A stretch of DNA of 64,000 bases. It comes from a virus. Lineage: Duplodnaviria > Heunggongvirae > Uroviricota > Caudoviricetes. The first letter of the stretch is position 1; each line of letters begins with the position of its first letter. Under the pieces are notes generated by a model. It was not told the DNA's origin and made no database searches. It saw only the letters and a list, made by a program, of their open reading frames with translations. Positions 3,016-36,519 of the stretch are shown here, piece by piece. Where the stretch lies: the IMG/VR virus record IMGVR_UViG_3300021399_000096; one strand, 5' to 3'. Both the position numbers and the translations under genes were made by a program.

Positions 3016-3050
3016 AAGACCCACTTAATAAAAGTGGGTCTTTATTTTTA
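3016..3050 (+). terminator. Rho-independent terminator.
   Basis: Perfect 11-bp stem aagacccactt / aagtgggtctt with loop aataa, followed by a T-rich tract. Confidence 0.7.
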
Positions 3051-3085
3051 ATAAATATATTGAAAAACAAGTAAATAAGATTATT

Positions 3086-5020: not shown

Positions 5021-5024
5021 AATT

Positions 5025-5845: not shown

Positions 5846-7009
5846 ATGGAAGAGAATAATTTTTTAAAAATAGATTTTGATTCGTCAAGTTTGACAGCTG
5901 CTAATATAACTGAAGAACAATTTGAAGCTGGTATTCAAGAAAAAGTTCAGTTAATTCTACAAAAAGAATTTCCAGAAACTCGTCAAAAACAATATATTAA
6001 AAAGGAGACAACAGGAATTAATTTTGCTTGTCCTATTTGTCATGATTCTGCATTTGATCCAAGAAAGAAACGTGGGCATATTGCATTTAGAGGCCGTCAT
6101 GCAGGACTTTATACTTGTTTTAATAGTTGTGGATCTATGTCTCTAAAAAAGTTTTTTAAGTATTTCGGGACAGATCTTTCTTTGACAGATATAAATTATA
6201 TTTCAAATAATTATACTAATCCTGAAGCAAATTCTCAAGAACTTTCAAATAATATAACATCTAACATTATTAATAAAGAGGAAGCTTATAAATGGGCTAT
6301 AGACAGAAATTACATTAGGGATGTTTTAGGTTTGCAAGATATCGGGCGTGTAACAACACCAGTTGCATATAACTATTTAATTAATAGGTGTCAATATCAA
6401 AATCATGAGAGATTTTTATATTCAGACAAATATAATCAAATTCTTATATTGAATCTTGTTGATGACAGAGTTCTTGGAATGCAAATTAGAAATTTAACAC
6501 CAAGGCAAGGCCAACCTAAATATTTGACAATGACTATTGAAAAGATGCGTCAAACAATGCTTGGTGATAAAACACCAGTTCCAGAAACTATTCTCAAGCT
6601 CTCATTAATATTCAATATATTTAATGTTGATTTTGCACATACTTCATTTAAACCAATATTTGTGTGCGAAGGTCCATTTGATGCATTTTTATTACCAAAT
6701 TGTATAGCACTTGCTGGTGCTGGAAAAAACTTTGCAATGCAATTTCCATTTTGGTATATATTTGATAAAGATGATACTGGCAATGAACATGCAATGGATA
6801 AAATGAAACAGGGGTATAATGTTTTCTTATGGAGAAAATTTATGACAGAATTTAATATTCCGGAAATTAATCCATATATATCATCTGGAAATAAAAAGAA
6901 ATGGGATATAACAGATATTAAAAAGTATTTTAGAGATATAAAACTAAATCCACGAATAATATGGAGTAACTATTTTTCAAATAATTTATTAGATGCATTA
7001 AATGTTTAA
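5846..7009 (+). CDS. DNA primase, T4 gp61-like, with an N-terminal zinc ribbon and a TOPRIM domain.
   Basis: The CPICH...C motif forms the zinc ribbon. FVCEGPFDAFLL...DKDDTGNE gives the TOPRIM acidic residues. Confidence 0.6.
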   Translation: MEENNFLKIDFDSSSLTAANITEEQFEAGIQEKVQLILQKEFPETRQKQYIKKETTGINFACPICHDSAFDPRKKRGHIAFRGRHAGLYTCFNSCGSMSLKKFFKYFGTDLSLTDINYISNNYTNPEANSQELSNNITSNIINKEEAYKWAIDRNYIRDVLGLQDIGRVTTPVAYNYLINRCQYQNHERFLYSDKYNQILILNLVDDRVLGMQIRNLTPRQGQPKYLTMTIEKMRQTMLGDKTPVPETILKLSLIFNIFNVDFAHTSFKPIFVCEGPFDAFLLPNCIALAGAGKNFAMQFPFWYIFDKDDTGNEHAMDKMKQGYNVFLWRKFMTEFNIPEINPYISSGNKKKWDITDIKKYFRDIKLNPRIIWSNYFSNNLLDALNV

Positions 7010-7010
7010 A

Positions 7011-7047
7011 AGTGATTCAAAAATAACTGAATCACTTTTTATTTTTT
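7011..7047 (+). terminator. Rho-independent terminator.
   Basis: Stem agtgattca / tgaatcact followed by ttttatttttt. Confidence 0.65.
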
Positions 7048-7169
7048 CATTTTTCAAATAAAAATAAATAATAAAAGTATGATAATGCTTTAATTGCATA
7101 ATTGTATTTTTAATAGTTGTATATCTAAATAAATATAAAAAATAAAGATAAAAATATAAATTTAAAAAT

Positions 7170-10100
7170 ATGGGTAAAATTTCTATTGATTTAAATTCAT
7201 TTAAAGCTGCTGGTATTTATACTCTTGAGATTGATAATACTGCCAGAGTTGCAGATGAATCAGCTGAATCATTACGCATGTTAGTCGGTTTTTCTAATAA
7301 AGGCCCGTTCAATAGGCCCGTTCTTCTTACTGAAGATGCTGACCGACTTCGTATTTTTGGTGATGCTGATACAAAATTAGAGCATAAAGGCTGCTTCTTT
7401 AATAGAATGTTAAGAACCCTCGTAGCAGGCGGCCCTGTTATTGCACTTAATTTATTAAATGTTGACAAATCATATTCAGGTCCAGATCAAGTTAACCTTG
7501 CTGCAATGTCTATGGATGCAGGAACTGCAAATCCACGTGTTGCTGATGCAGGAACATATGGTGAATATGACTATTTAGCAGAGTCTATCGACAGTTCAGT
7601 ATATGGGACTAAAAAAGGCGATAATCTTCCTTATGTTGGTAAAACTCCATTTGCAAGTGTATATAACAGATCACGTTTCTGGGTTCCAGATAAAGATTTG
7701 TTAAATGCTGAAGCTGCGCGTTTATTAAATGCATAGGAAAATCCAACATCATACTCATTTGAAAATAGCAACTTGCTTAATTTTGTAAATGTTGGTACAG
7801 AAGAAATTTCTATTTTGGTATTTAAACCAACTAGTATGCCTGGGTATGAAGTAACTGCTGAATCATGGTTTGGCGGTCGTGAAAATATTCCATTTGGATG
7901 GGTTCGTCCATATGATAATATTTCTGATTACTTCCTTCAAGTAGTTTGTGTTAAAGGTAACTGGTCTAATTATCCAGTTCTTTCTACAGACCCAATATGG
8001 AAAGGATTCTTTAATAAGAACGGTATTATTAAGAGCCGTATTAATCAATTCATGAGTGCAGAAGGTGTTACTGTTTTAGGTTCATGGACAGGATGCATTA
8101 TTCCAGACTTTACTGACAAGCAAGGTAATATGCTTAACCTTGAAAAGAAAGTCAATGCTGCTACTGAAAGAACCGGTTTGTTAATGGCATTTAATAATGA
8201 TTTGGCAAATGTTCTTACATACGACTATTCTGGACTTGATACTACTTCTACAAATCCTGGTAAAGGATGTTGGGGATTAGATATTGATGGCAATAGCGAA
8301 GTCGGTGGCGGTGAAACTGAAGCTAAATATATCGTTGATATGGTTGGCCACCAAGTATTTATGGGTGCTGATAATATTTCTGGAGAAGATTGGAGTGAAG
8401 ATGCATCTGCAATTGCAAATGATCCTTCAATTAGTTCAGAATATAATTGGGTACTTAATAAATCCCGTAATAAACGTATTCATGTAGATCCTTCATTGTT
8501 TATATTTGAGATAACAGATTCATCTGTAGATATTAGTGTATATAATGCATCTACTGAAGGTAATTCAAATAAGCTAAATCCGGGTATTTATGTAAATAGT
8601 TCATTATTTTATAATCCAGCTCCAAAAAATGCAGATGATACATCAGTACAATATTCAGCAGCTGCAATTTTAGATAAAATTATGGTGTCTAAAATATATG
8701 TTATTGCTAATAGTGGTACTGTTTCTAAACCTTCTGCATTAAATATTACTAAAGTGGATAAAGTAAAGACACCAACTGGTGTAGATGCTTCTGTATTCTT
8801 TACATTAAATGAAAAAGAATATTGTCAATTACTTACTATTAATATTGATGGTAGCACTAATATTATTAATAGTGTTAATGGTAATGGATTAAAAAAGAAA
8901 AAAGAAACTGTTGATGGATCTGTTAATGGTATTAATTTCTTATCATACAATTATGTTGCAAATGCTTCTAATAGTATTCAAGAAACTATTAATGCCGTTA
9001 AATATTTCAATGATCCTTCACTTTGGACTATTAATGGTTCGGTAGGTGAAATGCCTATTTCAGAAGATACTAAAAATATGTTTATCATATATAGTGCAGA
9101 AGAATGGGTAGACAGCAAAATTAAATTAGGTGATTATGTAAAAAATATTACATATGAAAATAATGAAGGTGAAACTGAAGAATATCAACTTATCCCAGGT
9201 TTAACAAAAGTAATTAGAAAACAATTTGTTACTTTTAATGACGGAGAAATTACATATCAAGGTAAAAAATATAAATTTAATGCAGAGTACACTGATGTAA
9301 TTAATAATAAAAAAGGATTCTACTTAATTACTTGTACATCTCCAGTATTGATTAAAAAAGATAATAATAGTATTGATCGTTAGCTTCCAATTTCTGATGA
9401 TAGAATTTCAGGTTCATTGAGATTTATTCCAATGAAAGGTTTGACAATTACTTCTAAACATCGTCCTGGATATGATGCTAATGGTAATCTTAATATCGAA
9501 GAAGGTATTGAAAAAGTTTATTCAGTATTGAATGATGAAGGTATCAAACGTGGTTTAATGAATCCTGCAATGGTTGATTATCGCTACATTATCGACTCAA
9601 TGTCATATGGTCTTGCACCAGAACTTGGTGGTAAAGTATGGTTATCAAGAATAGCTGAAGAAAGAGGCAAATGTACTGCAATTCTTAACTTGCCATCAGC
9701 AAAACAATTTGCAGTAAGTTCTAATCCTTACTTCTGCGATACTTATACTCCAGGTGCTGAAGCTCGTCCATCAATGAATACTAAATATATTCCTGAAGGC
9801 GGTAATACTGAAATGGGTTCAACTGTTATTTTCAGCTTACCAAGTGAAGAAGATGGTGCTAAGTTTACTGCTTGCTTCTGGCCACACTTGATTTACCAAG
9901 AGAATGGTAAAGAGATTGTAGTTCCGCCAGCAGCTGATGTAGCAAATGTTTTGAATCGTAAATTTAATGGTATCAATGATCCATACGCAATTAGTGCTAA
10001 CCAAAATGGTATATTATCTAACAGATATCTCAAAGGTCTTGAGTTCTTAGCGGATTTAACAGATCGTGAATATCTTGAACCATTCGGTGTTAATACAATT

Positions 10101-10478
10101 ATTAAGGATCAAGGTTCTATCATGATTTATGGTAATCAAACAGCTTATCAGGCAATGAAGTCAGACTTTAATAAACTTCATGTTCGTGAAAATCTTAACA
10201 CTGCTGAAATTGAATGTGAGAAAGTTCTTAAGAAATATAACTTTAAATACAATACTCCTGCAGTTCGTGCAAATATTGTTCAACAGCTTACTCCAGTTCT
10301 TTCTGCAATGCAAATTTCTGGAGCATTAGTTAAATATGAAATTATTTGTGATGAAACTAATAACACTCCAGATGTTATTGAAGCAGATGCATGTGTTGTA
10401 GAAATCAACTTGTGGATGAATCACGGAATGGAGAAAATTATTCAAAAGTTCACACTTCAACGTTTATCGGATCAATAA
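7170..10478 (+). CDS. Contractile tail sheath protein, T4 gp18-like, about 1102 aa, with large insertions and two in-frame TAG codons at 7734-7736 and 9381-9383.
   Basis: Three ORF-track pieces (7170-7736, 7773-9383, 9417-10478) lie in one frame and are separated only by TAG. No ATG or RBS follows the TAGs. The C-terminus YEIICDETNNTPDVIEADACVVEINLW aligns with gp18 YRVVCDTTNNTPSVIDRNEFVATFYIQ. Confidence 0.75.
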
Positions 10479-12304: not shown

Positions 12305-13234
12305 TTATCTAAATGTTGTTTTCTTTCCGGAGTTAACTATAGATTCAATATAAGATTTATCATCTCTAGTTAATCTGTTAGTTGGAGATTCTGTAAAGCC
12401 CATATGCCATCCAAGCCATTGAACCAAATCTGCATACTGCTATCCATTATCATAATGTATATAATATTTAAAAGAATAGCGTTTTTCTTCAATATTTACA
12501 CTAATACCATGGTTTCTTAACCATTTGATATGATTTTCTGCTGCAGCCATTGGAGAAGCAAATTCTCCAGCATCATAATTATAAGGAGAATATACAAAAT
12601 CTGTTATAAAATCTCCAGATTTTTCTTCAACAGAAGTAATCTCTTTAAATTCACAGGTTCTTCTCAAAATCATATTAACATCCATTTGAATTTGAGCTTC
12701 AGAACGGGTTTCCCATTTCCCAGATTTATCAATTTCTGCACGAATTGCTTCTGGTGTTGCTGGAATTTCTCCATTATTAATTTTTTGAATTATTTCAAAT
12801 TTAACTCTCTGACGTGGTGTTTTAATTTTATCAATTTGAATATATTGTTTCATTATATTCTATTTGTTCTCATTAACAGAATCATTAACAGAATTCTTAT
12901 TAACTTTTTGAATTGAAATTCTAGGAGATTGCCCAAGAGAATTATCAATATCTAAAACATTTGAATTAACTAATAAAGAAATAACTTTAATAACTTCTTC
13001 ATGAGTTTTGCATGTTACTCTGATAGAGCCAGAACCATAATTGTCAAATGCTGGTAATTTAGAAGATAATGCATCTAATGTTTTCTTATTCATTCCGTCA
13101 CAACGAACTAAATAAATTTCGCCTGAAACTTCTTGGCTAACTGGAGCAATATCATCAACTTCATTCAAAGAACGTTTAACTTCTTTGGCAACTTGCTCCA
13201 TTATTCTATTATATAAATCAGAATTTTTTTGCAT
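12305..13234 (-). CDS. Leader-family paralog of about 309 aa with two in-frame TAG codons at 12860-12862 and 12440-12442.
   Basis: Track ORFs 12860-13234 and 12440-12853 lie in one frame and are separated by TAG plus two codons. The frame continues to the TAA at 12302-12304. The N-terminus MQKNSDLYNRIMEQVAKEVKRSLNEV matches the family leader. Confidence 0.55.
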
Positions 13235-13330
13235 AATTATAATATATACTTTATTTCTTTTATTATTTATTTAAGAAATAATTAAACAAAATAAAAAGAG
13301 AACCAAATTTCTTCGATTCTCTTTTTAATA

Positions 13331-13756: not shown

Positions 13757-15427
13757 ATGAAATTTAAATCAATTGAGTGGAAAAATATTAGATCATTTGG
13801 GGAAGAAATCCAAAAAGTTGAATTTATTGATGGAGAATTAGTCTTATTAAAAGGAATTTCTGGTTCTGGAAAATCTACAATTCTCTCTCTTCCATGTATA
13901 GCATTATTTGGAAAAACTCCTGGATTGACAAAATCTGCAATTCATAATCGAATTAATAAACACGGCTGGATTAAAGCAGTTATTGAAAAGGGAGGGCATG
14001 AATATATTATTGAACGCTCATTCACACCCAATGATTTGCAGGTTTTCCGAGATGGTGTCAATATTAATTCATATGGCACTTCATCTGCACAAGATTATAT
14101 TGATAAAGAAATTGCAGATATTCCAATTAAAGCATTTTCTAATATGATTTCTATTTCTATGAAGAAATTCAAATCATTTTTAACTATGTCTCCGGCAGAT
14201 CGAAAAGAAATTATTGATAGAGTTTTCAATCTTGAAGTTGTCAATATTGCATTTGAAAAAATTAAAAAAGATGCTCGTGAAATTGGAAATATGATTAATT
14301 CCAATAATAATTCATTGTATCAATTAACTCAAACATTAAATAATGCTAATATTGAATTATCAAAACTTCAACAGTCTTCACAAACTGAAGAGAATAAAGA
14401 AATTATACGAACAAATACTGAAAAGATTTCAAAAGATAATGAGAATATTAAAAAATTGACAGATGCGTTGTCAACTTATACTCAAAAACAAACTGAAGCA
14501 TTAGGAAGCATTACAGAAATCAAGCAAAAACAATATGAGAATAATTACAATATTCAAGTTATTCAACAAAAAATAGATTTGTATTCTCAAGACAAATGTC
14601 CAACATGTGGAATGTCATTCTCTACAGAATCTGTTAAAGATTTGAAAACCAAACTTCTCAATCTTAAAATAGAAAAAGATAATATAACTACAGAACTTAA
14701 TGGACAATTAGAAAAAGCAAATGCAGATTATAATGCAATAACCGAATATATTGGAAAATTAAATACTGCAATATATCAATTAAATTCTGATATTCAACAA
14801 TTAACTGCACAAAATAATGCATTGAATGAACAACTTAAGAATAATGCAGAGTTCCAGGGAATTAATAATATTATCAATAATACAACAAAACAAATTGAAG
14901 ATATTAACAAACAACTTTCTGAAGATTCTGCAAAATTAAAAGAACTTCAAACATTGGCTATTGTTTATTCTATTGATGGAGTCAAACAAAAAGTTATTGT
15001 AAATTATTTGCCAATTTTGAATAAAGAAATTGAAGATAATTTGGATTTGGTTAATTTTCCGTATCAATTGGAAATTGACACTAAATTTGAACCACACCTT
15101 AAAGAACTTGGGGTTGAATTGACTCCAGAATCATTGTCAGACGGTGAAGAGACACGAGTTGATTTAATAGTTCTTTGTAGTTTATTTAAATTATTGAAGA
15201 GAAGATTTCCATCAATTAATATATTATCTATTGATGAAGTATTATCTTCACTTGACAATGAAACATCCGGATTAGTTCTTGATTTCTTGAGACATTTTGC
15301 ACAAGAAAATAATCTAAGTTGTTTTATTGTTTCACACACAGATTTGTATCTTGATAATTTTAATAAAATCATTAGTGTAACAAAAGACGGTTTTTCAAAA
15401 ATAGAAATAACAAAAGCAATTAACTAA
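13757..15427 (+). CDS. Rad50/SbcC-like ATPase, T4 gp46-like.
   Basis: Walker A GISGSGKST at the N-terminus, a long coiled-coil middle with a CPTCG zinc hook, and a C-terminal signature/Walker B LSIDEVLSSLD. Confidence 0.75.
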   Translation: MKFKSIEWKNIRSFGEEIQKVEFIDGELVLLKGISGSGKSTILSLPCIALFGKTPGLTKSAIHNRINKHGWIKAVIEKGGHEYIIERSFTPNDLQVFRDGVNINSYGTSSAQDYIDKEIADIPIKAFSNMISISMKKFKSFLTMSPADRKEIIDRVFNLEVVNIAFEKIKKDAREIGNMINSNNNSLYQLTQTLNNANIELSKLQQSSQTEENKEIIRTNTEKISKDNENIKKLTDALSTYTQKQTEALGSITEIKQKQYENNYNIQVIQQKIDLYSQDKCPTCGMSFSTESVKDLKTKLLNLKIEKDNITTELNGQLEKANADYNAITEYIGKLNTAIYQLNSDIQQLTAQNNALNEQLKNNAEFQGINNIINNTTKQIEDINKQLSEDSAKLKELQTLAIVYSIDGVKQKVIVNYLPILNKEIEDNLDLVNFPYQLEIDTKFEPHLKELGVELTPESLSDGEETRVDLIVLCSLFKLLKRRFPSINILSIDEVLSSLDNETSGLVLDFLRHFAQENNLSCFIVSHTDLYLDNFNKIISVTKDGFSKIEITKAIN

Positions 15428-15441
15428 AAACATTAAATATT

Positions 15442-16203
15442 ATGGAAACAAAAATGATTGAACAAAAAATTAAAGTTTCTGGATGGGATGAAATGTGTGA
15501 AACAACTATCAAATATCCAGAAGATTTAGAGTTTTATTATACTGCTGGTGAAATTGGCAAATGTAAGCATATTGAATGTGAGCATTATTATGCAATTTTT
15601 GAAAAATCCAGATATTCAGAAGAGATTATTAACGAAATTGTAAATAGTACGTGGCATATGTCAAAACGAGAATTTGGTGATTATATTATTTTAATAGTTA
15701 CTGAAGTCCATAATGATACACCACTTCCGAATATTAGTCGAGACGAATATTTCAAAAAATATAATATTGATTTTTCAAAATATACAGCAGTGTTATATAC
15801 AGAAGATATGTATGTTGCAAATCTGGCCAGAATTGTCAATTTTGAAAACCCGTATAGAATTGATACATTAAGCATCACCACAAAAAATTTATGGGATAGT
15901 TCAAGAAAAATTTTACAAATGGGAAAAGATACAATTGAGCTTTCTGCAATGATGCTTGACACATCTTCTCAGGCTTTTTCTAAATATAAAGTTGAAGTTC
16001 TTAATAATGATGAAAACGGAGATATTGTATGGAATATCGCATTGCGTGATGCTATGAAAGAATTTGGTTATAATCCGGATATTTTGAATCGTGTTGAAGA
16101 TGAATCTAAATATAATTTAGATTTAAAATATGAAAAAGAACATGAAGTAATTAAATTATGGGATAAACTACAAATTAAACAATTAGAACAAACAGATAAG
16201 TAA
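15442..16203 (+). CDS. Hypothetical protein.
   Basis: Intact ORF, tightly packed in the + strand operon with no overlap. Confidence 0.4.
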   Translation: METKMIEQKIKVSGWDEMCETTIKYPEDLEFYYTAGEIGKCKHIECEHYYAIFEKSRYSEEIINEIVNSTWHMSKREFGDYIILIVTEVHNDTPLPNISRDEYFKKYNIDFSKYTAVLYTEDMYVANLARIVNFENPYRIDTLSITTKNLWDSSRKILQMGKDTIELSAMMLDTSSQAFSKYKVEVLNNDENGDIVWNIALRDAMKEFGYNPDILNRVEDESKYNLDLKYEKEHEVIKLWDKLQIKQLEQTDK

Positions 16204-16208
16204 TAATT

Positions 16209-16676
16209 ATGAAAAAAGTATCAATCGAAATAGCTAAATTATTGCAAAAAGTTGGTTTTCACGAAAAAACCAATAGTTTCTATTTAGCAAAAACATCAAA
16301 TGCAGAATATGAATTATATGAAGAAGGCGAATATAGAGACTGGAATGAAGAATGTGAAAATGCAATCTATAATACAGTAATGTCTGCACCAACTTTATCA
16401 CAAATATGTGATTGGTTGAGAGAAAATAAAAATATGAAAATATGGGTTGAACCGCATAGGTTTATTGAAAGAAAAGAAATAGAAACTACTGAATATTTTT
16501 TTCCACTTTGGCATGGAATATGGTGGGTAAGTGAAAATGAAATATATAAATGTTCATGTCAAACATATAATGATTCAATGGAATCTATTGTTCTATTTGC
16601 ACTTAAAAAATTAGCAGAAGATAATAATGAAACTAAACAAAATATAGAGGGAACAAATTTGGAACAAATACAATAA
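16209..16676 (+). CDS. Hypothetical protein.
   Basis: Intact ORF in the operon. Confidence 0.4.
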   Translation: MKKVSIEIAKLLQKVGFHEKTNSFYLAKTSNAEYELYEEGEYRDWNEECENAIYNTVMSAPTLSQICDWLRENKNMKIWVEPHRFIERKEIETTEYFFPLWHGIWWVSENEIYKCSCQTYNDSMESIVLFALKKLAEDNNETKQNIEGTNLEQIQ

Positions 16677-17013
16677 ACACTGCGCATATTGTGGATGCGA
16701 ATTGGATTATAAAGATATGCAGGTAGATCACATTAAACCTGTATTTCATAATTGGTCTGAAAAAGATAAAGAAAAATTATTACCAAAAGATTATACAGGT
16801 GATGATTCTATAGAAAATCTAAATCCATCATGCAGAGCATGTAATTTTAGAAAAGGCTCCAATGATATAGAAGGATTTAGAGAAGAATTACAACATGGAT
16901 TGATATGTTGCTAGCGAAATTTTACATATCGAATGATGATTAAGTATGGTTTAGTAGAAGAACATCCGCAAGAAATAAAATTTTATTTTGAGAAATATAA
17001 TGGAAACAATTGA
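16627..17013 (+). CDS. HNH endonuclease. It probably extends through two in-frame TAGs at 16645 and 16912; the minimal core is 16702-16914.
   Basis: HCAYCGC...DHIKP...NLNPSCRACNFRKG gives the HNH motif with flanking CxxC zinc knuckles. The upstream Cys pair lies outside track ORF 16702-16914, so the real gene must start earlier, across a TAG. Confidence 0.5.
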
Positions 17014-17170
17014 TTTAGATTATTTTAAACAAAAAATATATGAGATTTCTGGAGTTCCAAAATCTAGTTTAGAAAAAATAGACGAAACATATAATGAAGT
17101 TTTACTTGAACATCGTTTTTGGAAGTTTATTGAATATTTAATTAAAACAAAAAGTAATAAAAACATATAA
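17000..17170 (+). CDS. Small hypothetical protein.
   Basis: ATG-initiated ORF between the HNH gene and the polymerase gene. Confidence 0.3.
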   Translation: METIDLDYFKQKIYEISGVPKSSLEKIDETYNEVLLEHRFWKFIEYLIKTKSNKNI

Positions 17171-17198
17171 TTATAAAATAAAAAATTAATAAAATTAC

Positions 17199-18746
17199 AT
17201 GGCAGTTTATAAGAGCAAATTTATAGAAATTGATCCAGATACTTGTTCTAAAGAAGAACTTTATAATGCAATTAAAGAGTGTAAGGATCTTTCTGGATAT
17301 TATGAAACCAAACAGCTTGCAGTTAAAACATTTATTAATTCAGTATATGGAGCTTGCGCTAGTAAGTATTTCGTTGGGCATAATACGGCAGTTGCAGAAT
17401 CAATTACACTTCAAGGACAGGATTTGAATCACTATTCAGAAAACTGTGTCAATAAGTATTTTAGAGGAATTTTTCAATCACAAGAGGAATATAATAGAGT
17501 TATTTATGTTCCTTTATTCGAGTGGATGGAAAAATATGATATTGAAACCACTGATGAATTTTATGCTAAAACACCGGATAAACAATGGGTTTTAGTTAAA
17601 TTGCCATTAAGCAAAAATGAAATTAAAGATCAAGATAATTTGTCAAAAGAAATGAAGGCTTTACTTAAAAAAGTTTCGGTTAAAACCACTTTTGGCGAGT
17701 ATCTTGGAGCACCATATGAAAAAATAAAAGAATTTGAAATCAATAAAGGAAAGATTACTCAAAATGAACCACTTAATTCTTTGGCATTAAAAGCTAAGAA
17801 TCCATTAGATTCTAAAGAAAACCCATTTGCATATATGGGTAAAACAACATATTTGGAAGATGATCCAACATGTAGTTGTACGGTGAATGGGGATACTGAC
17901 TCCATTTATGTCGAGTTTGGGAGGGTTACTACGTTTTTAGGAATACATGATTTTAATAAGGCTACTCGTTTTGTTGTTGATATGTGGAATTATGGAATCG
18001 GACCATATATGGATAAAAAATATGACGAATATGCACAAAAATATAATTGTGATGAAAATATAGAAAATCTTGAACTTGAAAAAATTGCAGATACCGCAAT
18101 ATTAATAGCAAAAAAACATTATGCAATGTCTGAATGTTGGAAAGAACCAAATATATATTTAAATCCAGGTGAAGAAGTTGCATATAAAGGTCTTGAATTA
18201 GTTCAAGGATCTACACCTCCATTTGCAAGAAAATGCCAAGATGAATTTATGAAATATGTTATGAATTGGTATATAAATCATAATGAATCTCCGGAATTTG
18301 ATGAAATTTATTCATTACTCAAAAAATTCAAAGATGATTTTATTAAACAAAACCCGGAAGATATTTGTAAAAGTGTATCAATTTCTGATTATGACAAATT
18401 TATTCTTGATGATAAAAATCAATTAGTGATTGCTGATAAATGTCCTATTCATGTTAGAGCAGCTGGAATTTATAATTATATTTTGAATAATCCAAAGAAT
18501 AAAAAATATAAAATGAAATATAATTCAATAAAGACCCGTGATAAAGTTAAATTTTATAAAACAACAGATCCAAATTATCCTGTCTTTGGTTTTATTCCGG
18601 GCAAATATTCTTTAGAGTTTGCACTTCCAATGGATTATAATCAACAATTTGAAGATTTGGTTTTGAAACCATTAAATCGTGTTATTGAGATTTTAGGTTA
18701 TCAACCATTTACATCAGATTTATGTTATGTTTCATCATTATTTTAA
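17199..18746 (+). CDS. Family B DNA polymerase, C-terminal half (motif B, motif C, thumb). This is a separate gene of a split polymerase.
   Basis: KTFINSVYGACAS is motif B (KxxxNSxYG). VNGDTDSIYV is motif C (YGDTDS). Confidence 0.8.
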   Translation: MAVYKSKFIEIDPDTCSKEELYNAIKECKDLSGYYETKQLAVKTFINSVYGACASKYFVGHNTAVAESITLQGQDLNHYSENCVNKYFRGIFQSQEEYNRVIYVPLFEWMEKYDIETTDEFYAKTPDKQWVLVKLPLSKNEIKDQDNLSKEMKALLKKVSVKTTFGEYLGAPYEKIKEFEINKGKITQNEPLNSLALKAKNPLDSKENPFAYMGKTTYLEDDPTCSCTVNGDTDSIYVEFGRVTTFLGIHDFNKATRFVVDMWNYGIGPYMDKKYDEYAQKYNCDENIENLELEKIADTAILIAKKHYAMSECWKEPNIYLNPGEEVAYKGLELVQGSTPPFARKCQDEFMKYVMNWYINHNESPEFDEIYSLLKKFKDDFIKQNPEDICKSVSISDYDKFILDDKNQLVIADKCPIHVRAAGIYNYILNNPKNKKYKMKYNSIKTRDKVKFYKTTDPNYPVFGFIPGKYSLEFALPMDYNQQFEDLVLKPLNRVIEILGYQPFTSDLCYVSSLF

Positions 18747-18778
18747 AACAAATAGAAAAAGAAATATAAAAAATATAC

Positions 18779-20308
18779 ATGATAATTAGTAAAGAACAAA
18801 TAGATAGCAATGATTCTAATGGAAATCCAATAAAATTATTGGTTATTTCATATGTCAATAAAGAAGGAAAGATTTCATATTTGAAATGGCAAATTCCAGC
18901 AACAGAAATGTTTGAATGGGTTTATACAAATAGGGCTAATGCAGATAAACCATTTCCAGCATATGATGTGAATACTCGTCAACCTATTATTGATGAAGTT
19001 ACTGGACAACCAAAAATAGTACAATGGAAATCTTATGACAATAAATGGGTTAGACGAAATCCAACTATTAAAAATCTTTCAGAAGGAAGATTGAATGAAA
19101 TTATTAATAGTTGGGGGAAAATTGCAGATCCTTTATTTGAAGCTAATACTCCAATAACATGGTTTTGTGATATTGAGGTAGATGTTTCTCCAGAAGGATT
19201 TCCGGATCCAGATTCTGCATCTATGCCAATTAATACAATAGCAATAACAAAATTTCCAAAAACTATTGTTTTTGGACGTAAGCATTTATCTGAAAAAGAA
19301 ATAAATGGTATTCAAGAAAATCTTAGAAATTATTCAGATTTAACAAAAGATTATGAATTTGAATATAGATATTATGAAACTGAATATCAAATGATTGAAG
19401 CCTTTATAGAATTTATAAAGGATATTCCTGCTATAACTGGATGGAACTTTTTAGGATATGACTGGAAATATATTAAAAATCGTTGTGAAAATATTGGAAT
19501 AACGGATTTAATTAAAATTTGTCCAACACAAGCATATACACGATTTAAATTAAATAGAAAAAATGTAATAGATGTTCAAGTTCCATTGCATAAAATCATA
19601 TATGACTATATGTTAGTTTATAGACAATGGGACAGATCAGTAGAAATTAAAGAAAGTGATACATTGGACTGGGTTTCTAACAAAGTTCTTGGAATTAAGA
19701 AAGTTGAACATGAATGGGGGTTTGAGGAATTTTATAGAGATCATTATATGGAATATGTTTTCTATAATGCTGTTGATACTATATTGGTTGAAAAAATCGA
19801 TGAGAAACTTAAAACCGCACAAATTTGGTATATGTTGGCAAGTGAACTTCGTGTATCATTAAATGATGCTTTTTCAACTATTTTGCCAACTGAAGTTGTT
19901 ATGACTAACTTTATTTATCCACAATATAAAGTGGTTCCAAAAAAGATTAATAATAACGATGATGTTGATACAGATTATGAAGGAGCTTTTGTTTGGCCAA
20001 CACAACCTGGAGTTTACAAATATATTGGTGGGCTAGATTTCGCTTCACTTTATCCTTCAACGATGATCCAATTTCAAATATCGCCAGAATCATTTTTATT
20101 TAAAGATCCAACATATGTTCCAAAAGATAATGAAATCAAAACAATTTCTGGGGCAGTTTATCAAAAAAGAGCTGATGCTATTCTTCCAGCTATTCTTAGA
20201 CACTATTTTGCTAAACGTAAAGCAGCTAAGGCAGATCGAAAAAGTGTAGATGTAGATATGGAAGTATTAATTAAAAAATATGAAGAACGATTTGGAAAAT
20301 TTGAATAA
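18779..20308 (+). CDS. Family B DNA polymerase, N-terminal half (3'-5' exonuclease domain plus motif A). It is encoded downstream of the C-terminal half.
   Basis: FCDIEVD is the Exo I motif. YIGGLDFASLYPSTMIQ is motif A (DxxSLYPS). The C-terminus ILPAILRHYFAKRK aligns with the T4 gp43 segment that immediately precedes motif B. Confidence 0.8.
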   Translation: MIISKEQIDSNDSNGNPIKLLVISYVNKEGKISYLKWQIPATEMFEWVYTNRANADKPFPAYDVNTRQPIIDEVTGQPKIVQWKSYDNKWVRRNPTIKNLSEGRLNEIINSWGKIADPLFEANTPITWFCDIEVDVSPEGFPDPDSASMPINTIAITKFPKTIVFGRKHLSEKEINGIQENLRNYSDLTKDYEFEYRYYETEYQMIEAFIEFIKDIPAITGWNFLGYDWKYIKNRCENIGITDLIKICPTQAYTRFKLNRKNVIDVQVPLHKIIYDYMLVYRQWDRSVEIKESDTLDWVSNKVLGIKKVEHEWGFEEFYRDHYMEYVFYNAVDTILVEKIDEKLKTAQIWYMLASELRVSLNDAFSTILPTEVVMTNFIYPQYKVVPKKINNNDDVDTDYEGAFVWPTQPGVYKYIGGLDFASLYPSTMIQFQISPESFLFKDPTYVPKDNEIKTISGAVYQKRADAILPAILRHYFAKRKAAKADRKSVDVDMEVLIKKYEERFGKFE

Positions 20309-20310
20309 TT

Positions 20311-21069
20311 ATGACATTAGATTTTAGTACATATAAGAATTTAATATTCATTGGGGACATTCATCATAAATTAAATGATGTAGTTAAACAAATGATTAAT
20401 TATTCTGATACTTTGTTTATTTCTACTGGAGATTGCAATATTGGAGTAAAGCCATTTGAAACTGATACAGATATGTTTGAAAATATTGAATATATTTTGG
20501 CATCTCATAATAATATGTTTTTAATTATTAGAGGTAATCATGATAATCCAAAATATTTCAAAAAGAATTCTTCAATGCGTTTATTCTTAGAGAATAATAC
20601 ATCGCATATTATATTAGTTCCGGATTATTCAGTTATTAAAACTGCTAATTATAATATATTATGTATAGGCGGTGCAAGATCCATTGACAGAGTTTTTAAT
20701 GTGAAGAATCTAGATTGGTTTCAAAATGAGAATATTCAAAAGCCAGATGATAATTTCTTTAATCAAAATGACAATATAGATATTATTGTTTCTCATTCTG
20801 CACCATTATTTGCACAACCACTTGAATTTTCAGATGAATTAAAATTTTATAATTCCTTTATTGTCAATTCATATGCACTATATGACAAAACAATGAAGAA
20901 TGATATTTATAAAGAACGTTTATTGCTTAAAGGTATATATGAAAAACTGAATAATAAACACCATATTCAATATTTGATATATGGACATTATCATAAACAT
21001 ATAGAAAGCCAATATAATAAAACTAAGTGTATTAGTTTAGAAATAGGAGAACTAAAACAAATTAATTAA
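20311..21069 (+). CDS. Calcineurin-like metallophosphoesterase.
   Basis: The motifs GDIHHK, GDCN, RGNHD and GHYH are present. Confidence 0.55.
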   Translation: MTLDFSTYKNLIFIGDIHHKLNDVVKQMINYSDTLFISTGDCNIGVKPFETDTDMFENIEYILASHNNMFLIIRGNHDNPKYFKKNSSMRLFLENNTSHIILVPDYSVIKTANYNILCIGGARSIDRVFNVKNLDWFQNENIQKPDDNFFNQNDNIDIIVSHSAPLFAQPLEFSDELKFYNSFIVNSYALYDKTMKNDIYKERLLLKGIYEKLNNKHHIQYLIYGHYHKHIESQYNKTKCISLEIGELKQIN

Positions 21070-21073
21070 AGTT

Positions 21074-21433
21074 ATGATTATTTATAAAATTTTTTACAAA
21101 GAACATCAAGTGTTTGATATTGAATTATTATTGAATGAATCTGATTATTCTGGCAGATATTATTCAGATTTACATATAATGCCATGTATTCCAGGTGTTG
21201 CACATTATATTTTTGAAAATGTAAAAACGCCAGAAGATTTAGAAATTGCAAGTGCAAGATGTGAACAAATTGCAGATATGCGTGTTATTTTATGGGAAGA
21301 TCCCGAATATGATAATTCACCATTGCCAGAAAAAGAGGCAGAAGAACGCCATTATAAAATTGTTAAACCAAGAGTTGAAGAGAATTTGAAAAATTTCTGC
21401 AAAACTATGAGTTTTTCAATGTTTACTGACTAA
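21074..21433 (+). CDS. Hypothetical protein.
   Basis: Intact ORF. Confidence 0.35.
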   Translation: MIIYKIFYKEHQVFDIELLLNESDYSGRYYSDLHIMPCIPGVAHYIFENVKTPEDLEIASARCEQIADMRVILWEDPEYDNSPLPEKEAEERHYKIVKPRVEENLKNFCKTMSFSMFTD

Positions 21434-21484
21434 AAAACAATAAGAAAAATTTAAAATAAAATAGATAAAAAATTAAATATATAA

Positions 21485-22039
21485 ATGGAAACTAATAGAA
21501 AAATTCAATTTACTAAAATTCGTGATGTGAAAACACCAAACAGAGCAAATCTTAATGATGCTGGAATGGATTTTTATATTCCTAGTTATTCAGAAGAATT
21601 TTTGAATGATTTGAAAGAAAAGAATAAAGCTAATAACCTTCAATATATTCTTGATGGTGAAGATGGAGAAAATCCAAATTATACTTTAAGAATTATTATT
21701 CCAGCTGGCGAACAAATCAATATTCCGTCAGGAATCAAAGTTAATATTCTTGATAAAAATACATATCTTGAAGCAAATAACAAATCTGGTATAGCAACTA
21801 AATATCATTTAGTGGTTGGCGCAAGTGTAGTTGATGCAGATTATCAAGGTGAAGTGCATCTTAATTTAATTAATACTGGAAATACAGATATTGAAGTTTT
21901 TTCTGGAATGAAAATTGTTCAATTTATTCATAAGTATTATATTCATACAGACCTTGAAGAAATTTCAGTAAATGAATATAATAATTTAAAAACCAGTGAT
22001 CGTGGGGATGGAGCTTTTGGACATAGCGGAATTAAATAA
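21485..22039 (+). CDS. dut: dUTPase (dUTP pyrophosphatase) / dCTP deaminase-fold protein.
   Basis: AGMDFYIP, GIATKYHLVVGASVVDADYQGEVHLNLINTG and SDRGDGAFGHSG are dUTPase motifs 1 to 5. Confidence 0.6.
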   Translation: METNRKIQFTKIRDVKTPNRANLNDAGMDFYIPSYSEEFLNDLKEKNKANNLQYILDGEDGENPNYTLRIIIPAGEQINIPSGIKVNILDKNTYLEANNKSGIATKYHLVVGASVVDADYQGEVHLNLINTGNTDIEVFSGMKIVQFIHKYYIHTDLEEISVNEYNNLKTSDRGDGAFGHSGIK

Positions 22040-22100: not shown

Positions 22101-22174
22101 ATATTTTTTCATTTTTTATTCTTTAATAAATAATAAAAGAAAGAATATTTTAATCAACAAAATATCAATATCAC

Positions 22175-22903
22175 ATGGAAACAAAAATATCTGAGAATTT
22201 TTTAACAAAAGTGTTTGATAAATGGGGTGATAAATGGTGGTTCAAAACACTTTTCACTATTGCTGTGGTGTGGATCTTAATGGGCCCAGTAGTAACTTCC
22301 TTTATAAATAATTCAATGCAACAAAAATCTGTATCTGAAGCAGTAACTAATTCATTAGATGACAGAGATGAAAGAAATAAAGCTTCACATAGAGCAAATT
22401 TTGAAGCATCTCGTTAGGCATATGCATTAGCAAAACATACAATGCAAGAATATATTTCATTGACTAATTCAGAATATATATTTTTAATTGAATACCATAA
22501 TGGTTCTGAAAACGTAATGACTGGTGTTCAATTCTGTCGTTTTGATATGACTCTTGAAGTAGCAACAGATAATGCAAAATATGTAGCTATTGAAAAATTC
22601 CGTGATGATATTGTTGCACGTTATGATATTTTGTTATCAGAAGATTTAGGTAAAAATAAATTGCTTTATTATACACAAGAAGAATTTGAAAAAGCAGATA
22701 GATATTTAGCACAACAAATGGATTATGTAAATGCTAAATCATATGCAGTATTAAATCTTAAAGATATTCATGGTAAGGCCTTTGGTTCTATTCTATGCAT
22801 TTCTACAGATGATGAACAAATAAATTTATTAGCTGTTCGTGAATTAGCTATTGATTTAGAGAATATATTCAATAATGGTGGTATTGAAGATGAAGAAGAA
22901 TAA
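22175..22903 (+). CDS. Membrane-anchored protein of about 242 aa with one in-frame TAG at 22415-22417.
   Basis: Track ORFs 22175-22417 and 22442-22903 are in the same frame and joined through TAG. There is an N-terminal TM helix WWFKTLFTIAVVWILMGPVV. Confidence 0.5.
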
Positions 22904-23172
22904 AAATATGCATTTTTGCAATTTTAACGTTTTTTAAGAAAATAAATAAATAAAATACAAATATAATTATCTTTCTGTCTTAATTAATATGAAAGAGTAA
23001 TGTAAGAAACAAAAACACATCTCGTTCATTTTAGGGATTTATTAGTATAGAGAAAATAAATTTACGAAATAGACATATTAAATGATTAAGATTAATTAAA
23101 GATTTGAAAAATGATTATCCGTTACTTTATTATAGGTAACACATTAAATAAAAAATAACTAGAAAAAATAAT

Positions 23173-25080
23173 ATGAAAGTAAACAATCAAAAAGCTACTG
23201 CTAAAAATGCAGAGCAAATGATCAATGAAGCTTGGGCTCCAATGATTACTCGTACAACTGGTGTTAAGGATCCAGAAAAGCTTGCTTGGATGAGTCAACT
23301 TGCTCATAATACAGCTAAATCCTTAAATGAATCTGCTCCTGTAATGGGTGCAAACGACTTCTCTGAATTTGGCGGTGCTTATGCTCCATATAATAACCTT
23401 TATAACACTCTTGGTGTTGGTAACGTAGTTGCTCCATCACGTGTTGCTATGTCTGGTTCTGCATAGGCAGATGATCAAATTCTTGGTTCTGGCGATAAGT
23501 TCCCTGCACTTCTTCCATTAGCAATGAAAGTTGCTGCTAAAACTATTGGTTTTGAACTTGTAAATACTACTCCTCTTGCAGGTCCTAGCGGTGTTCTTCC
23601 TTATATGGACTATGTATACAGTGGTAGCAAACAACCATATGGTGCAACTCCTGCATATGATCCAAAATCTGCAAATCCTGCATATGCTCATAGTGCGCGT
23701 GTTCCAGAAGGTGGTGTAGGCCAAAATCCTGCATTTGCTCTTTATGGTCTTCCTCATGCGTTCAAAGCTACTCTTCTTCCTGCTAACAGCAATGCAGATC
23801 CAATGGTTAAATATAAACATGATCTTGAAGTAGCAGGTTTGAAAGCTGGTGTAGCATTTAGAATTGGTGGTGGACAATCTGGCGCTGGTGCTCTTGAAGT
23901 TGAATTCATTGGTTGGAGCCGTATTGATGGATGCCCAATGTTCAAAGTTGTTAATGGAGCTAAATCTCTTGGTGAATATTTCATGGAAGGTACAGTTGAA
24001 GCCGTTAGTGAAATTGCTACATTGAAACTTCAAGGTCCTAAATTAGTATCTATGTTGGAAGATTCACTTCTTGGTTTCGCTGGTGCTGGTGAAGTTGATA
24101 AAGATGCTTGGGCTGGTACATATCAAGATGGTACTGTTCTTTATGAACCAATGAGTCGTGCAACAGGTGAATTAACTCCTGCCCGTCAAATCTCATTACA
24201 ACTCTTCACAAAGAACATCGCAGTTGGTACAATCCAAGTTGCTTGTGCTGTTACACAAGAACAAGTTACTGACCTTCAAAAACAATGGGGTATTGATGTA
24301 TTGAAGATCGTTGAGAACGCTGGCGTAAACGAACTTTCTCAAACTATCAACCGTCACATCACATCTCGTTTGTTTGCTCTTGGTTGGAAGAACCATGCTA
24401 AGATGGTAGAAGTTGAAGGTCTTGAAGCTTGCTTGAATATGACTTTCCAACCTTGGGATAAAAATGATAATGGTACAGTAGATAATGGAGAAATCCAAAC
24501 TCGTGCATTTGCAATTCCTGAAGGACAATATCTTGAAACTGAACAACGTTATGAATCTCAAAAATTAGTTGAACTTCCTTTAATGCCTATGGGTGTTATT
24601 GAAGGCGCTAACTTCGAGAACCGTGACACTCTTATCAAGAGAATCTTTACAAATATCTTAGCTGCTTCTAACTGGATCCAACAACGTGGTCGTTACGGTG
24701 CTGCTACATTCGTTGTAACTAACATCCGTGTTGCTACATTGTTACAATCTGATGCGCACTATAGCTTCTCACCAATTGAGAATACTGTTAAACAAACTGC
24801 TGGTCAACTTTACCCAATCGGTACTGTATGCGGTTTAACTGTTTACGTTGATCCATTGATGAAGGCTAATGATACTCGTGTATTAGTTGGACGTAAAGGT
24901 GCTAAAGATGAACCAGGTGTTCACTTCTGCCCATACGTAATGGCTGAGGTTGTACGTATCATCGCTGAAGGTACAATGGCTCCAAAACTTATGATTAAAT
25001 CTCGTTACGCACTTGTAGATGCAGGTTTTTATCCAGAAACACAATATATTACATTCTTCGTAGATTGTCGTGGTCTTTAA
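23173..25080 (+). CDS. Major capsid protein, T4 gp23-like, about 635 aa, with one in-frame TAG at 23464-23466.
   Basis: Track ORFs 23173-23466 and 23524-25080 are in the same frame and joined by TAG. FPALLPLAMKVAAKTIGFELVNTTPLAGPSGVL aligns with the gp23 region around IPNLIAFDICGVQPMNSPTGQVFAL. AATFVVTNIRVATLL aligns with the gp23 segment GNFIIASRNVVNVLA. The gene has strong codon bias and GC enrichment. A 270-nt AT-rich leader lies upstream. Confidence 0.75.
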
Positions 25081-25160: not shown

Positions 25161-25267
25161 TATGATTTTATTTAACTTATGTATTTGTTAATATATAATT
25201 CTATCTATTTATTAAAAAACTTTTTAAATAAATATAATATAATATATAAAGAAATATAATTTAAATT

Positions 25268-27424
25268 ATGACTATACTAGAAGAAACATTAGAAGAATTA
25301 AAAGCAGGTAAAATTTCGCAACGCCAATTTATTGGATATTGTAAATCAGATAATAACATTTATGGAGAAATTATAGAAAAAACTAAATTCCTAGATCAAT
25401 ATAATCCAGATATTCTTGAACGTCTTTATTATATAATTAATAATATTAATGAAGTAGTTAAATGTAAATATTGTAATAATAAAGCAATATGGACAGGACG
25501 TATAAATAATGGGTATAAAGATATTTGTAATTCTAAAGAATGTCGTACAAAACAATTAGCAGATGTTCATAAAGGAAAAACAATTATATCAAATAATAGA
25601 GATAATGATTTTATTATTAAACAATCAGCAATAGAAGAAGTTAATGATGATATTATAAAAGACATATTGAAATATGATAAATTTTTAGATTTAATTACAA
25701 ATGAAAATATTTTAAAATATCTCGATAATAGATTTAGTGATAGCTCATCTAGATTAGAATCTCTTCAACGTATTAGATTTGGAATAGAAGAAAAACCAAA
25801 ATGTCCAACATGTGGAAAACCTGTAGTGTGGGTAGGTAAAAAATCTAAAATGTTTACAACTTATTGTTGTAATGAATGCCGAGCACAAAATAAAGAAACT
25901 CATAAGAAAATGAAACAAACCCAACTAGAAAATTGGGGAAATGAATGTTGTTATCAATCAGAAAAATATAAACAAAAAATGCGTGAGAAATATGGTGTTG
26001 ATTATTATTGGCAACGTTCAGATATAAAAGAAAAAAGAAAAGTAGGTTTAATAGAACATTATGGCACAACAAAATTATATCAAGTAGAAGAAATTAGAAA
26101 TAAAATAATTGCTACTAATAGAGAAAAATTTGGATATGATAATCCAATGCAAAATCCAGAAATTAAACAGAAAACTTATGAGGCTATCAAAAAATCAATG
26201 AGATTTGGAACATCTAATGCTGAAGATAATGTATATAATTGGTTAATTGAGCTTGGATATAATGTAGAAAGATTTGTAAGATCTGAAAAATTCCCATTTA
26301 ATGTGGATTTTTATTTAAAAGAATATGATTTATATATTGAATATCAAGGTTCTCAATATCATCATGGATATTCTTTTCTCGGAACAAAAGATGATTTTAT
26401 TGAATTAGAAAATTTAAAGCAAAAGAATGAAAAATCTATATTAGAAAGTGGTAAAACTAAATCACAATATCAATCTATTATAGATACTTGGTCAATATAT
26501 GATGTAAATAAAAGAAATTATGCAAAAACCCATAATATAAAATTTTTGGAAATTTATAAATGTAATTCAAAAGAAGATTTACAATACCAATTAAATTTTT
26601 ATTTATGTTGTTTATATAATGAAAATATATTAAATTATAATAAAGAATTATTACAGAATGAATTTAATTTTTATAAAAAATTAAAAACTGAAAATTTATC
26701 AAATTCTGTAGGAAAATATCATATGATTATTAAGCAGTTCCAATGCAATAATTTCTTTAAACATGAAATAGAATTATTTGTTAATGATCCAATCATACGT
26801 AGAAAACTTATTCAAAACCGTGTAAAATATCTTAATAAAGAAGAAATACAACTTACACCAGAAGAAATTTTAACCGGCTTTAAAAAATCTGGGATTTATT
26901 ATGGTTATTCTCATTTTAATCCAAAATGGACAAATTGGTTTATTAACAAATATAATATTAAAACTATATATGATCCTTGTGGTGGATGGGGGCATCACTT
27001 ATTAGGAATGCTTTCATGTAATAAAATAATATATAATGATTTTTCACAATCAACCGTTGAAGGAGTTCAACAAATAAAAGATTATTTTAATATAGATAAC
27101 TTAGAAGTTCATTATGGAGATGGAACTGAATATATTCCAGAAGAGGTTGATGGATGGTTTATGTGTCCGCCTTATTATAATTTAGAACATTATGAATGCG
27201 GTGATTTTAAGTCATTAGAAGAATATAAAATATTCTTAAATAAAATTATTAAACTATGGCAAAATAGTTCATCTAGAGTCTTTGGAGTTATATTGAGAGA
27301 AGATTTAATAGATTATATAGATATTAAACCAAATGAAATACGTGATATGAAAATTCATAAAACATATTTAAATGGTGGAAAGAAAAACTTAGATGAAAAA
27401 TTTTATATTTTCAAAAAATAGTGA
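25268..27424 (+). CDS. Large multidomain protein: N-terminal Cys4 zinc ribbons, a central PD-(D/E)xK-like nuclease-fold segment, and a C-terminal SAM-dependent methyltransferase-like region.
   Basis: CKYCNN...CNSKEC and CPTCG...CCNECR are the zinc ribbons. VDFYLKEYDLYIEYQGSQYH is the nuclease-like segment. YDPCGGWGHHLL resembles MTase motif I. FMCPPYY resembles MTase motif IV, (D/N/S)PPY-like. The gene ends in tandem TAG-TGA. Confidence 0.4.
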
Positions 27425-33723: not shown

Positions 33724-33765
33724 ACATTATAGAAAACAAATTAAAAAATTCAATTATAATTTAAT

Positions 33766-36502: not shown

Positions 36503-36519
36503 TTTAAATAAAGTGATTT

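Follow-up and report, generated by a model that had tools for sequence, protein, structure and literature searches.

Bicistronic gp43 DNA polymerase genes of T4-related phages have reportedly been described by Petrov et al. in 2006 and 2010. In phages 44RR, 25, 31, 65 and 133 of this group gp43 is split at the tip of the fingers domain, with the two genes in natural order and 2 bp to 3 kb apart, and an engineered Pfu polymerase split at the fingertip is fully active (PMC3061061). Among cellular enzymes, the halves of Methanothermobacter thermautotrophicus PolB1/PolB2 lie 85 kb apart and those of Nanoarchaeum equitans PolB are rejoined by a split intein, as cited in PMC3061061 and PMC2677866. 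In the jumbo phage PhiKZ, DNAP-N gp82 and DNAP-C gp50 form a stable, active 1:1 complex according to a 2026 preprint (PMC13648687). The 'fractured genes' model attributes the breakage of essential phage genes to free-standing endonuclease genes, with later uncoupling of the parts in the genome (Dassa et al. 2009, PMC2677866). Here we describe the DNA polymerase locus of the viral record IMGVR_UViG_3300021399_000096, of which the whole 64-kb stretch analysed is termed the window. Two adjacent open reading frames (ORFs) in it very probably encode the two subunits of one replicative T4 gp43-like family B polymerase, which would pair non-covalently, and the C-terminal half (C-half) is encoded upstream of the N-terminal half (N-half). 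Split polymerases have precedents in other phages, of which this is a variation and not a new kind of system or mechanism. The elements of the locus, in window coordinates, are the following:

17199-18746, + strand: C-half gene, 515 amino acids (aa), with the second finger helix bearing motif B, the palm with motif C and KKxY, and the thumb; stop codon TAA
17325-17351, + strand: motif B, KTFINSVYG, C-half aa 43-51; K43, N47, Y50 and G51 invariant in 39 homologues
17481-17885, + strand: lineage-specific palm insertion of ~135 aa, C-half aa 95-229, directly before motif C
17889-17903, + strand: motif C, GDTDS, C-half aa 231-235; invariant, and uninterrupted in the window
18747-18778, + strand: intergenic spacer of 32 nt, A-rich, from the C-half stop to the N-half start
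18779-20308, + strand: N-half gene, 509 aa, with the N-terminal domain, the 3'-5' exonuclease (Exo I-III) and motif A; stop codon TAA
19169-19183, + strand: Exo I, DIEVD, N-half aa 131-135; D131, I132 and E133 invariant in 45 homologues
20036-20059, + strand: motif A, DFASLYPS, N-half aa 420-427; D420, S423, L424, Y425 and P426 invariant

The original prediction, made from the letters of the window alone, had placed motifs B and C in the upstream gene and Exo I and motif A in the downstream one, and all four are found there. The N-half additionally contains Exo II (GWNFLGYD) and Exo III (YNAVD), with N223, D228, Y329 and D333 invariant, while the C-half contains KKHYA at aa 305-309, which is likewise invariant among homologues, and terminates in a conserved L..LF tail. 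All Exo, A, B and C motifs are thus accounted for, which supports the proposal that the two genes make up one complete family B polymerase, and the C-terminal half is indeed encoded first, ending 32 nt upstream of its partner. In Pfam searches the N-half matched DNA_pol_B_exo1 (E 7e-15) and positions 22-141 of the DNA_pol_B profile, and the C-half matched the same profile from position 136 onward. The palm insertion is predicted by AlphaFold2 (AF2) to be a compact alpha/beta module, with a predicted local distance difference test score (pLDDT) of 87-97; at the same place Lak-A and Lak-B megaphages have ~55 aa and T4 has ~15 aa.

A tblastn search of the window with T4 gp43 mapped residues 111-498 to 19166-20275, 535-611 to 17259-17489 and 617-809 to 17889-18476. 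In comparisons with solved structures, N-half 131-485 aligned with RB69 gp43 114-487, and C-half 19-94 and 230-425 aligned with T4 gp43 533-608 and 616-808; the window polymerase is ~24-25% identical to T4 gp43. It had been claimed that the two ORF ends are contiguous on gp43 between motifs A and B, and the alignment to gp43 and RB69 proposed for placing the break bears this out: in a three-way alignment the junction lies at T4 gp43 residue ~508, where the ends abut with no overlap or loss. The break between 43A and 43B of Aeromonas phage 44RR is at T4 ~510, two alignment columns from that of the window, and both breaks interrupt the fingertip loop that connects the two finger helices. The first finger helix, with R480 and K484, is part of the N-half, and these two residues align with RB69 R482 and K486, which together with the K and N of motif B contact the phosphates of the deoxynucleoside triphosphate (dNTP) (PMC3061061). 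The N-half ends in a long, confidently predicted helix (aa 468-505 in the AF2 model) and the C-half starts with the motif B helix (K43, N47). Since the motif A aspartate resides in the N-half and the motif C aspartates in the C-half, the active site is composite.

Single-chain AF2 models of the C-half and N-half reached mean pLDDT values of 87.4 and 87.6, and for both the best Foldseek match was RB69 gp43. The N-half model recovered it with E ~1e-21 and a query-normalised TM-score of 0.67-0.69, and the C-half model with E ~4e-11 and ~300 columns at 3.4-4 A. The segments modelled with low confidence, namely N-half aa 392-424 (the motif A strand, pLDDT <50) and C-half aa 1-70 (the finger helix), are those that might be expected to need the partner subunit.

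Both halves are under purifying selection. Their ratios of nonsynonymous to synonymous substitution rates (dN/dS) relative to homologues are 0.11-0.24, similar to that of the neighbouring sbcC-like gene; all catalytic residues are invariant in homologues as distant as ~45% identity (39 of the C-half, 45 of the N-half); and both ORFs are intact in every relative. The sequence of the two genes, their order, the position of the break, their conservation and the selection acting on them are directly established here. The protein would work as follows. The chain would be broken in the fingertip loop, with the halves translated separately and most likely associating non-covalently via the helical hairpin of the fingers and the palm sheet to which both contribute. 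Besides the N-terminal domain and the exonuclease for proofreading, the N-half would bring in the carboxylate of motif A and the first finger helix; the second finger helix, the carboxylates of motif C, the thumb and the tail at the C-terminus would come from the C-half. Their pairing would give a composite active site, such that neither half should polymerise alone and, as the products would be independent proteins, the order of their genes would be free. The only plus-strand terminator-like site predicted in the block lies after the dUTPase gene, with none between the halves, and co-transcription of the two genes would be compatible with this lack of predicted terminators. A promoter scan recovered fewer sigma-70-like sites than shuffled controls, and is uninformative for a Bacteroidota-type host.

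Several points weigh against a two-subunit polymerase made from this locus. The physical association of the halves, their activity and their co-transcription are inferred for this pair, and the case for co-transcription rests on terminator prediction, the promoter scan not covering Bacteroidota-type promoters. The isolated C fragment of split Pfu is insoluble without the N fragment (PMC3061061), and judged by this alone translation of the C-half first has no obvious advantage. Finally, the genome is probably >300 kb in size, of which the window represents 64 kb, and the check for a second polymerase covered complete Lak relatives.

The split extends well beyond the window. Among the best 120 homologues of the N-half, at 42-90% identity, three bear inteins and every other one is 400-540 aa long, and the best 120 homologues of the C-half are either intact C-halves or pieces with intein halves, none being fused to an N-half. 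In the Mahaphage genomes LR756500, LR756501 and LR756502 (29-35% identity; clade name from PMC7162821) the N-half stops at the same point. Likewise, the 'DNA polymerase' gp105 of Sphingomonas phage PAU (L028 2462-3925) and that of Chryseobacterium phage MA9V-2 (L027 2459-3946) are N-halves of 487 and 496 aa, respectively, which end at the fingertip; no C-half was found within 2.5 kb of either gene. Since all close homologues of either half, spanning 40-93% identity, are half-length, the fingertip split is, as judged from these comparisons, clade-wide and old. The order and spacing of the halves vary among the relatives:

LR756500, 35% identity: N-half then C-half, ~10 kb apart
P0115 locus (human gut), 44% identity: N-half then C-half, 4.4 kb apart
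four other loci, 48-57% identity: no C-half within 10 kb
nine Lak-B genomes, 56% identity: C-half then N-half, ~6 kb apart
Lak-A and Lak-C, 58% identity: halves ~220-230 kb apart, on opposite strands
P0019 locus, 68% identity: C-half then N-half, 9.3 kb apart
Lak Sonny, 70% identity: C-half then N-half
window lineage, 72-100% identity: C-half then N-half, 20-32 nt apart (4.1 kb in L003)

The simplest reading of this distribution is that the split came first and that the halves then moved as independent genes, the order in which the C-half precedes the N-half probably having arisen within the Lak lineage. Translocation, inversion, or duplication followed by loss are possible origins of that order; tblastn searches (E up to 10) for leftovers of the N-half upstream of the C-half, or of the C-half downstream of the N-half, returned noise only. 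The reversed order is a genuine, conserved and mechanistically minor variation.

The surroundings of the polymerase genes contain three further elements that bear on how the arrangement is to be understood:

13757-15427, + strand: SbcC/gp46-like ATPase, at the upstream edge of the plus-strand replication/recombination block that contains the polymerase genes
16627-17013, + strand: free-standing HNH endonuclease gene, 128 aa, strain-specific; stop codon TGA
17000-17170, + strand: small conserved ORF, 56 aa from its ATG, directly 5' of the C-half; also present in L003 and L004

The HNH gene holds two in-frame TAG codons (16645-16647 and 16912-16914) and is broken under the standard code, but intact if TAG is read as sense, as the rest of the window supports. 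Its recoded product matched positions 1-46, the full profile, of PF01844 with 34.6 bits (cut-off 21.4) and aligned over 95-98% of phage HNH proteins, the closest homologues being small HNH proteins of unrelated siphophages. The prediction of an HNH endonuclease immediately upstream is thus sustained by a profile match 185 nt 5' of the C-half, with the qualification that the gene is intact only under the altered code. It does not lie between the polymerase halves, and the small conserved ORF stands between it and the C-half; no HNH gene occurs at this locus in L003, L004 and L011, and none in the Lak-A, Lak-B and Lak-C genomes. Among close relatives, then, the locus is conserved but this gene is sporadic; it is most likely a later mobile insertion with a putative homing role. 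Directly upstream of the C-half of L004 a 554-aa ORF (6725-8389) shows a weak match to Vsr endonucleases and a GIECNGIFWHN motif; with this Vsr-like ORF in L004 and the HNH gene in the window, two endonuclease families have inserted at the same locus. The only Pfam match of the small 56-aa ORF is a weak one to Portal_T4, and the same weak match is seen in a 96-aa ORF adjoining the N-half of L024.

Inteins constitute a further class of insertion in the relatives. L003 carries a contiguous mini-intein of ~163 aa at motif C (4504-4994; GDTD|S...HN|SIYVEFGR). In Lak-A2, Lak-B1, Lak Sonny and LR756500 the motif C intein is instead split over two genes, with endonuclease-like (Vsr-like or other) ORFs between them, and in Lak Sonny the first piece of the C-half lies >10 kb from the second. 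The split-intein genes at motif C that could be delimited are:

L002 (Lak-A2), 7980-8801 and 9142-10131
L001 (Lak-B1), 25963-25145 and 23185-22181
L016 (LR756500), 8199-7414 and 5737-4784

In relatives with a split motif C intein the polymerase is therefore made from three genes, and the C-half of the window is an intein-free allele. Neither polymerase ORF of the window has an Intein_splicing match in Pfam, and a search of 12-24 kb recovered no Rfam intron but only a sub-threshold CRISPR-repeat match. Together with the endonuclease genes, these inteins mark the polymerase locus as a hotspot for mobile elements. Some homologues of the N-half either stop at about residue 425, in motif A, or carry an Intein_splicing domain there (757-823 aa), the cases being P0074-P0076, P0078, P0080, P0081, P0092, P0097, P0105 and P0116, and they point to motif A as a further site of intein insertion in some members of the clade.

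Four other explanations of the locus have to be set against a split, two-subunit polymerase. The window is metagenome-derived and the original prediction came without read-level data, so that the arrangement might in principle be an artefact of assembly or circular permutation, the true genome having the natural order or a single ORF. However, an identical N-half with the 515-aa C-half gene directly 5' of it is found in at least nine contigs from different pipelines (ENA scaffolds, a SPAdes-style NODE contig, Logan and JGI), the largest being a 320-kb scaffold in which the polymerase genes are 110 kb from its end. The proposed comparison with related phage genomes, moreover, found the C-half ahead of the N-half in L003, L004 and L011, independent relatives at 72-87% identity, as well as in Lak-B and Lak Sonny. 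In L004 (N-half 87% identical) the C-half ends 22 nt before the N-half; in L011 (72%) the SbcC/gp46-like gene directly precedes the C-half, which is followed after a 20-nt gap by the N-half; and in L003 (84%) 4.1 kb of opposite-strand genes intervene. Nine complete circular Lak-B genomes also place C upstream of N, and in the window the two ORFs, which are in different frames, start separately and each end in TAA. The probability of an artefact is accordingly close to nil. A different account, offered by the original prediction itself, is that a recent event driven by the adjacent HNH homing endonuclease broke an intact gene and rearranged its halves. The proximity of the HNH gene, 185 nt 5' of the C-half, speaks for it, as do the breakage of genes by free-standing endonuclease genes elsewhere, including gp43 of Aeromonas phage 25 (PMC2677866), and the attraction of such elements to this locus in the clade (the Vsr-like ORF of L004 and the motif C inteins). 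Yet the split is shared by homologues down to ~40% identity, by distant huge phages, and by PAU and MA9V-2, whereas the HNH gene is missing from L003, L004 and L011, which have the same gene order, and from Lak-A, Lak-B and Lak-C; where present it is not between the halves, and no polB remnants or duplicated segments flank the polymerase genes. As the split predates the lineages without the HNH gene, this gene could not have caused it, and such a recent HNH-mediated event is very unlikely. Endonuclease-driven breakage is still reasonable as a general model for how this polymerase came apart.

The remaining two explanations concern what becomes of the gene products. Relatives use a split intein in the same polymerase, at motif C, and the phage recodes TAG, both of which could be taken to favour a covalent rejoining of the halves, whether by a split intein, by RNA trans-splicing or by recoding into one permuted chain. 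Against this, no Hint or intein sequence is present at the C-terminus of the N-half or the N-terminus of the C-half, the extein ends are directly contiguous on the T4 sequence, the spacers are only 28-32 nt long and lack an Rfam intron, and distances of 4 kb to 225 kb separate the halves in relatives. Both genes, further, end in TAA and not TAG, the two ORFs are in different reading frames, and an additional in-frame TAA (18767-18769) precedes the N-half ATG. Rejoining is thus extremely improbable. A circularly permuted chain produced by readthrough or frameshifting was considered separately and rejected, given the TAA stop, the 32-nt spacer, the frame change, the in-frame TAA and the lack of any fused protein among the best 120 homologues of each half. 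The halves might instead be decaying pseudogene fragments in a phage whose genome is replicated by another polymerase: the view of that genome is limited to 64 kb, and jumbo phages of this group have been reported with a minimal split Pol III alpha-like enzyme (PMC7824862). The dN/dS values and the invariance of the catalytic residues across 39-45 homologues are at odds with decay, as is the intactness of the ORFs in every relative. A full-length polymerase elsewhere, which had been named as a reason to consider the fragments pseudogenic, was likewise not encountered: tblastn with T4 gp43 recovered no other polB-like fragment in the window, and in the complete Lak genomes there is just one N-half locus and a full-length polB is lacking. 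Decay is hence highly improbable, and a pair of functional subunits is the preferred interpretation.

The two-subunit polymerase can then be placed among the systems described above. It shares with the 44RR type the break in the fingertip loop, the lack of an intein at the break, an N-half of ~500 aa accompanied by a C-half, and the T4-like module; 44RR has 43A followed by 43B, as the original prediction had stated for split gp43 genes of some T4-like phages, whereas here C precedes N and the halves are unlinked in relatives. The window also differs in belonging to the Lak/Mahaphage lineage, in its 135-aa palm insertion and in reading TAG as sense. Relative to the 44RR type, then, it is gene order and linkage, the lineage, the palm insertion and the recoded genome that differ, while the break site is the same. 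PhiKZ is comparable as a jumbo phage with two PolB genes that are not in natural adjacent order, and in its composite site, with the motif A Asp in the N subunit and the motif C Asp in the C subunit of a complex demonstrated experimentally. In contrast to the window, however, PhiKZ PolB is split within a large insertion of the palm, which leaves the fingers domain wholly in DNAP-C; its subunits are much larger (638 + 731 aa) and from a different, divergent polymerase clade, and a clamp-like third subunit, Rhc, is involved. The archaeal PolBs likewise have their halves at distant loci, which shows that linkage and order are dispensable, but both are cellular enzymes. That of M. thermautotrophicus is broken ~83 residues beyond the fingertip on the C-terminal side, in the palm, and the N. 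equitans enzyme differs in having its halves rejoined. The original prediction had not recognised a non-natural order. This stands with respect to the 44RR type but not more widely, as unlinked halves are documented for M. thermautotrophicus PolB (85 kb, PMC3061061) and PhiKZ gp50/gp82 (PMC13648687). The closest relatives are Lak-A, Lak-B, Lak-C and Wendovervirus sonii (56-70% aa identity), which have the same fingertip split and TAG recoding, and in two of these, Lak-B and Sonny, C-half sequence likewise precedes the N-half. They differ in that a split intein, accompanied by endonuclease-like ORFs, interrupts the Lak C-half once more at motif C, and in that their halves are 2-9 kb or ~225 kb (Lak-A, Lak-C) apart, as against adjacent and intein-free in the window. 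The arrangement at motif C in the relatives is exactly that of the fractured genes model, whereas at the fingertip break of the window there is neither an intein half nor an endonuclease gene between the parts. The literature searched, with incomplete journal coverage, yielded no description of a split or multi-piece state of the Lak/Mahaphage polymerase.

The window itself is from a Lak-like megaphage of the gut or rumen in which TAG is read as sense, an identity and a recoding that the original prediction had overlooked. A megablast search of the locus against a phage collection gave no nucleotide match to known phages, and relatives were found only by protein searches. Both halves are 56-61% identical to those of Prevotella Lak megaphages, a 70%-identical homologue carries the NCBI name 'DNA polymerase [Wendovervirus sonii]', and the window has a G+C content of 27-30%. 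Several of its long ORFs are interrupted by TAG only, with 12 such codons in 3032-5020 and 5 in 5016-5798. In-frame TAG codons occur in structural genes (tail sheath, major capsid protein) and are absent from replication genes such as the polymerase halves; TAG 22415 stands opposite CAA (Gln) in L004, and the TAG of the major capsid gene is conserved as TAG. Recoding of TAG has been published for Lak phages (PMC8346664). A tRNA scan of the 64-kb window found no tRNA gene, and hence no TAG suppressor tRNA. The genes concerned are:

7152-10478: TAG-containing gene
12305-13270, - strand: TAG-containing gene
22154-22903: TAG-containing gene
23152-25080: TAG-containing gene
51535-52713, - strand: TAG-containing gene
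41215-42333, + strand: release factor 2 (prfB), NCBIfam 415 bits against a cut-off of 370, a single uninterrupted ORF

The phage-encoded prfB fits, and supports, a phage in which TAG is no longer a stop. The module in the window is T4-like, with gp32-, gp46- and gp23-like genes. Other genes on the plus strand include a CCA-adding enzyme/poly(A) polymerase-family protein with an HD domain (33760-35223) and a nicotinate phosphoribosyltransferase (36517-37686), both auxiliary genes typical of huge phages, as well as a 622-aa fusion of the shikimate pathway enzymes type II 3-dehydroquinate dehydratase (AroQ) and EPSP synthase (AroA) (58888-60756). A heavily TAG-recoded paralogous family (window 5016-5798 and 3032-5020; L003 5932-9889, - strand) is characterised by a conserved N-terminal 'ILEA(I/V)NRGIQLALDD' and variable C-terminal domains, which are either DUF285/BspA-like 'NWDVSNV' repeats or a 'DLGLPSGTLWCKYNLG' domain; five copies of it occupy the space between the polymerase halves in L003. 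Across 13757-22039 the identity to L004 is mosaic, being 97% for the sbcC-like gene, 87% for orf253, 86% for the C-half, 87% for the N-half, 96% for the metallophosphatase and 79% for the dUTPase, a pattern that suggests recombination between related phages.

In the relatives, genes of the DUF7487/Mom-like, DNA-modification type are repeatedly found just downstream of the N-half (L011 11627-13198, L025 11521-13401 and L026 11518-13549), and the window has a gene of this type at 25265-27424. The engineered fingertip-split Pfu polymerase gained tolerance for gamma-phosphate-modified nucleotides (PMC3061061). This tolerance of the split Pfu analogue and the modification-type genes near the N-half hint at a functional fingertip, and it is conceivable, though unlikely, that the break is a maintained function and not a neutral scar in the replicases of Lak/Mahaphage and PAU-like jumbo phages. 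If it were selected, the open two-piece fingers might relax the nucleotide pocket for modified dNTPs; alternatively, separately regulated subunits might allow control of replication at the level of assembly. The tight operon of C-half and N-half would then be a secondary re-linkage for balanced expression.

Lak-type megaphages include the largest known phage genomes, and their replicative polymerase is a multi-piece enzyme, with two subunits in the window and three pieces, by way of a trans-splicing intein at motif C, in many relatives. These pieces act as independent genes, which can change order or come to lie hundreds of kilobases apart. Annotation pipelines label them only as 'DNA polymerase' fragments. 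Where polB serves as a phylogenetic marker, the correct pieces have to be concatenated, and completeness checks may mis-score such genomes. The locus also provides a natural, deeply conserved example of the family B fingertip as a permissive break point, which is useful for polymerase engineering.

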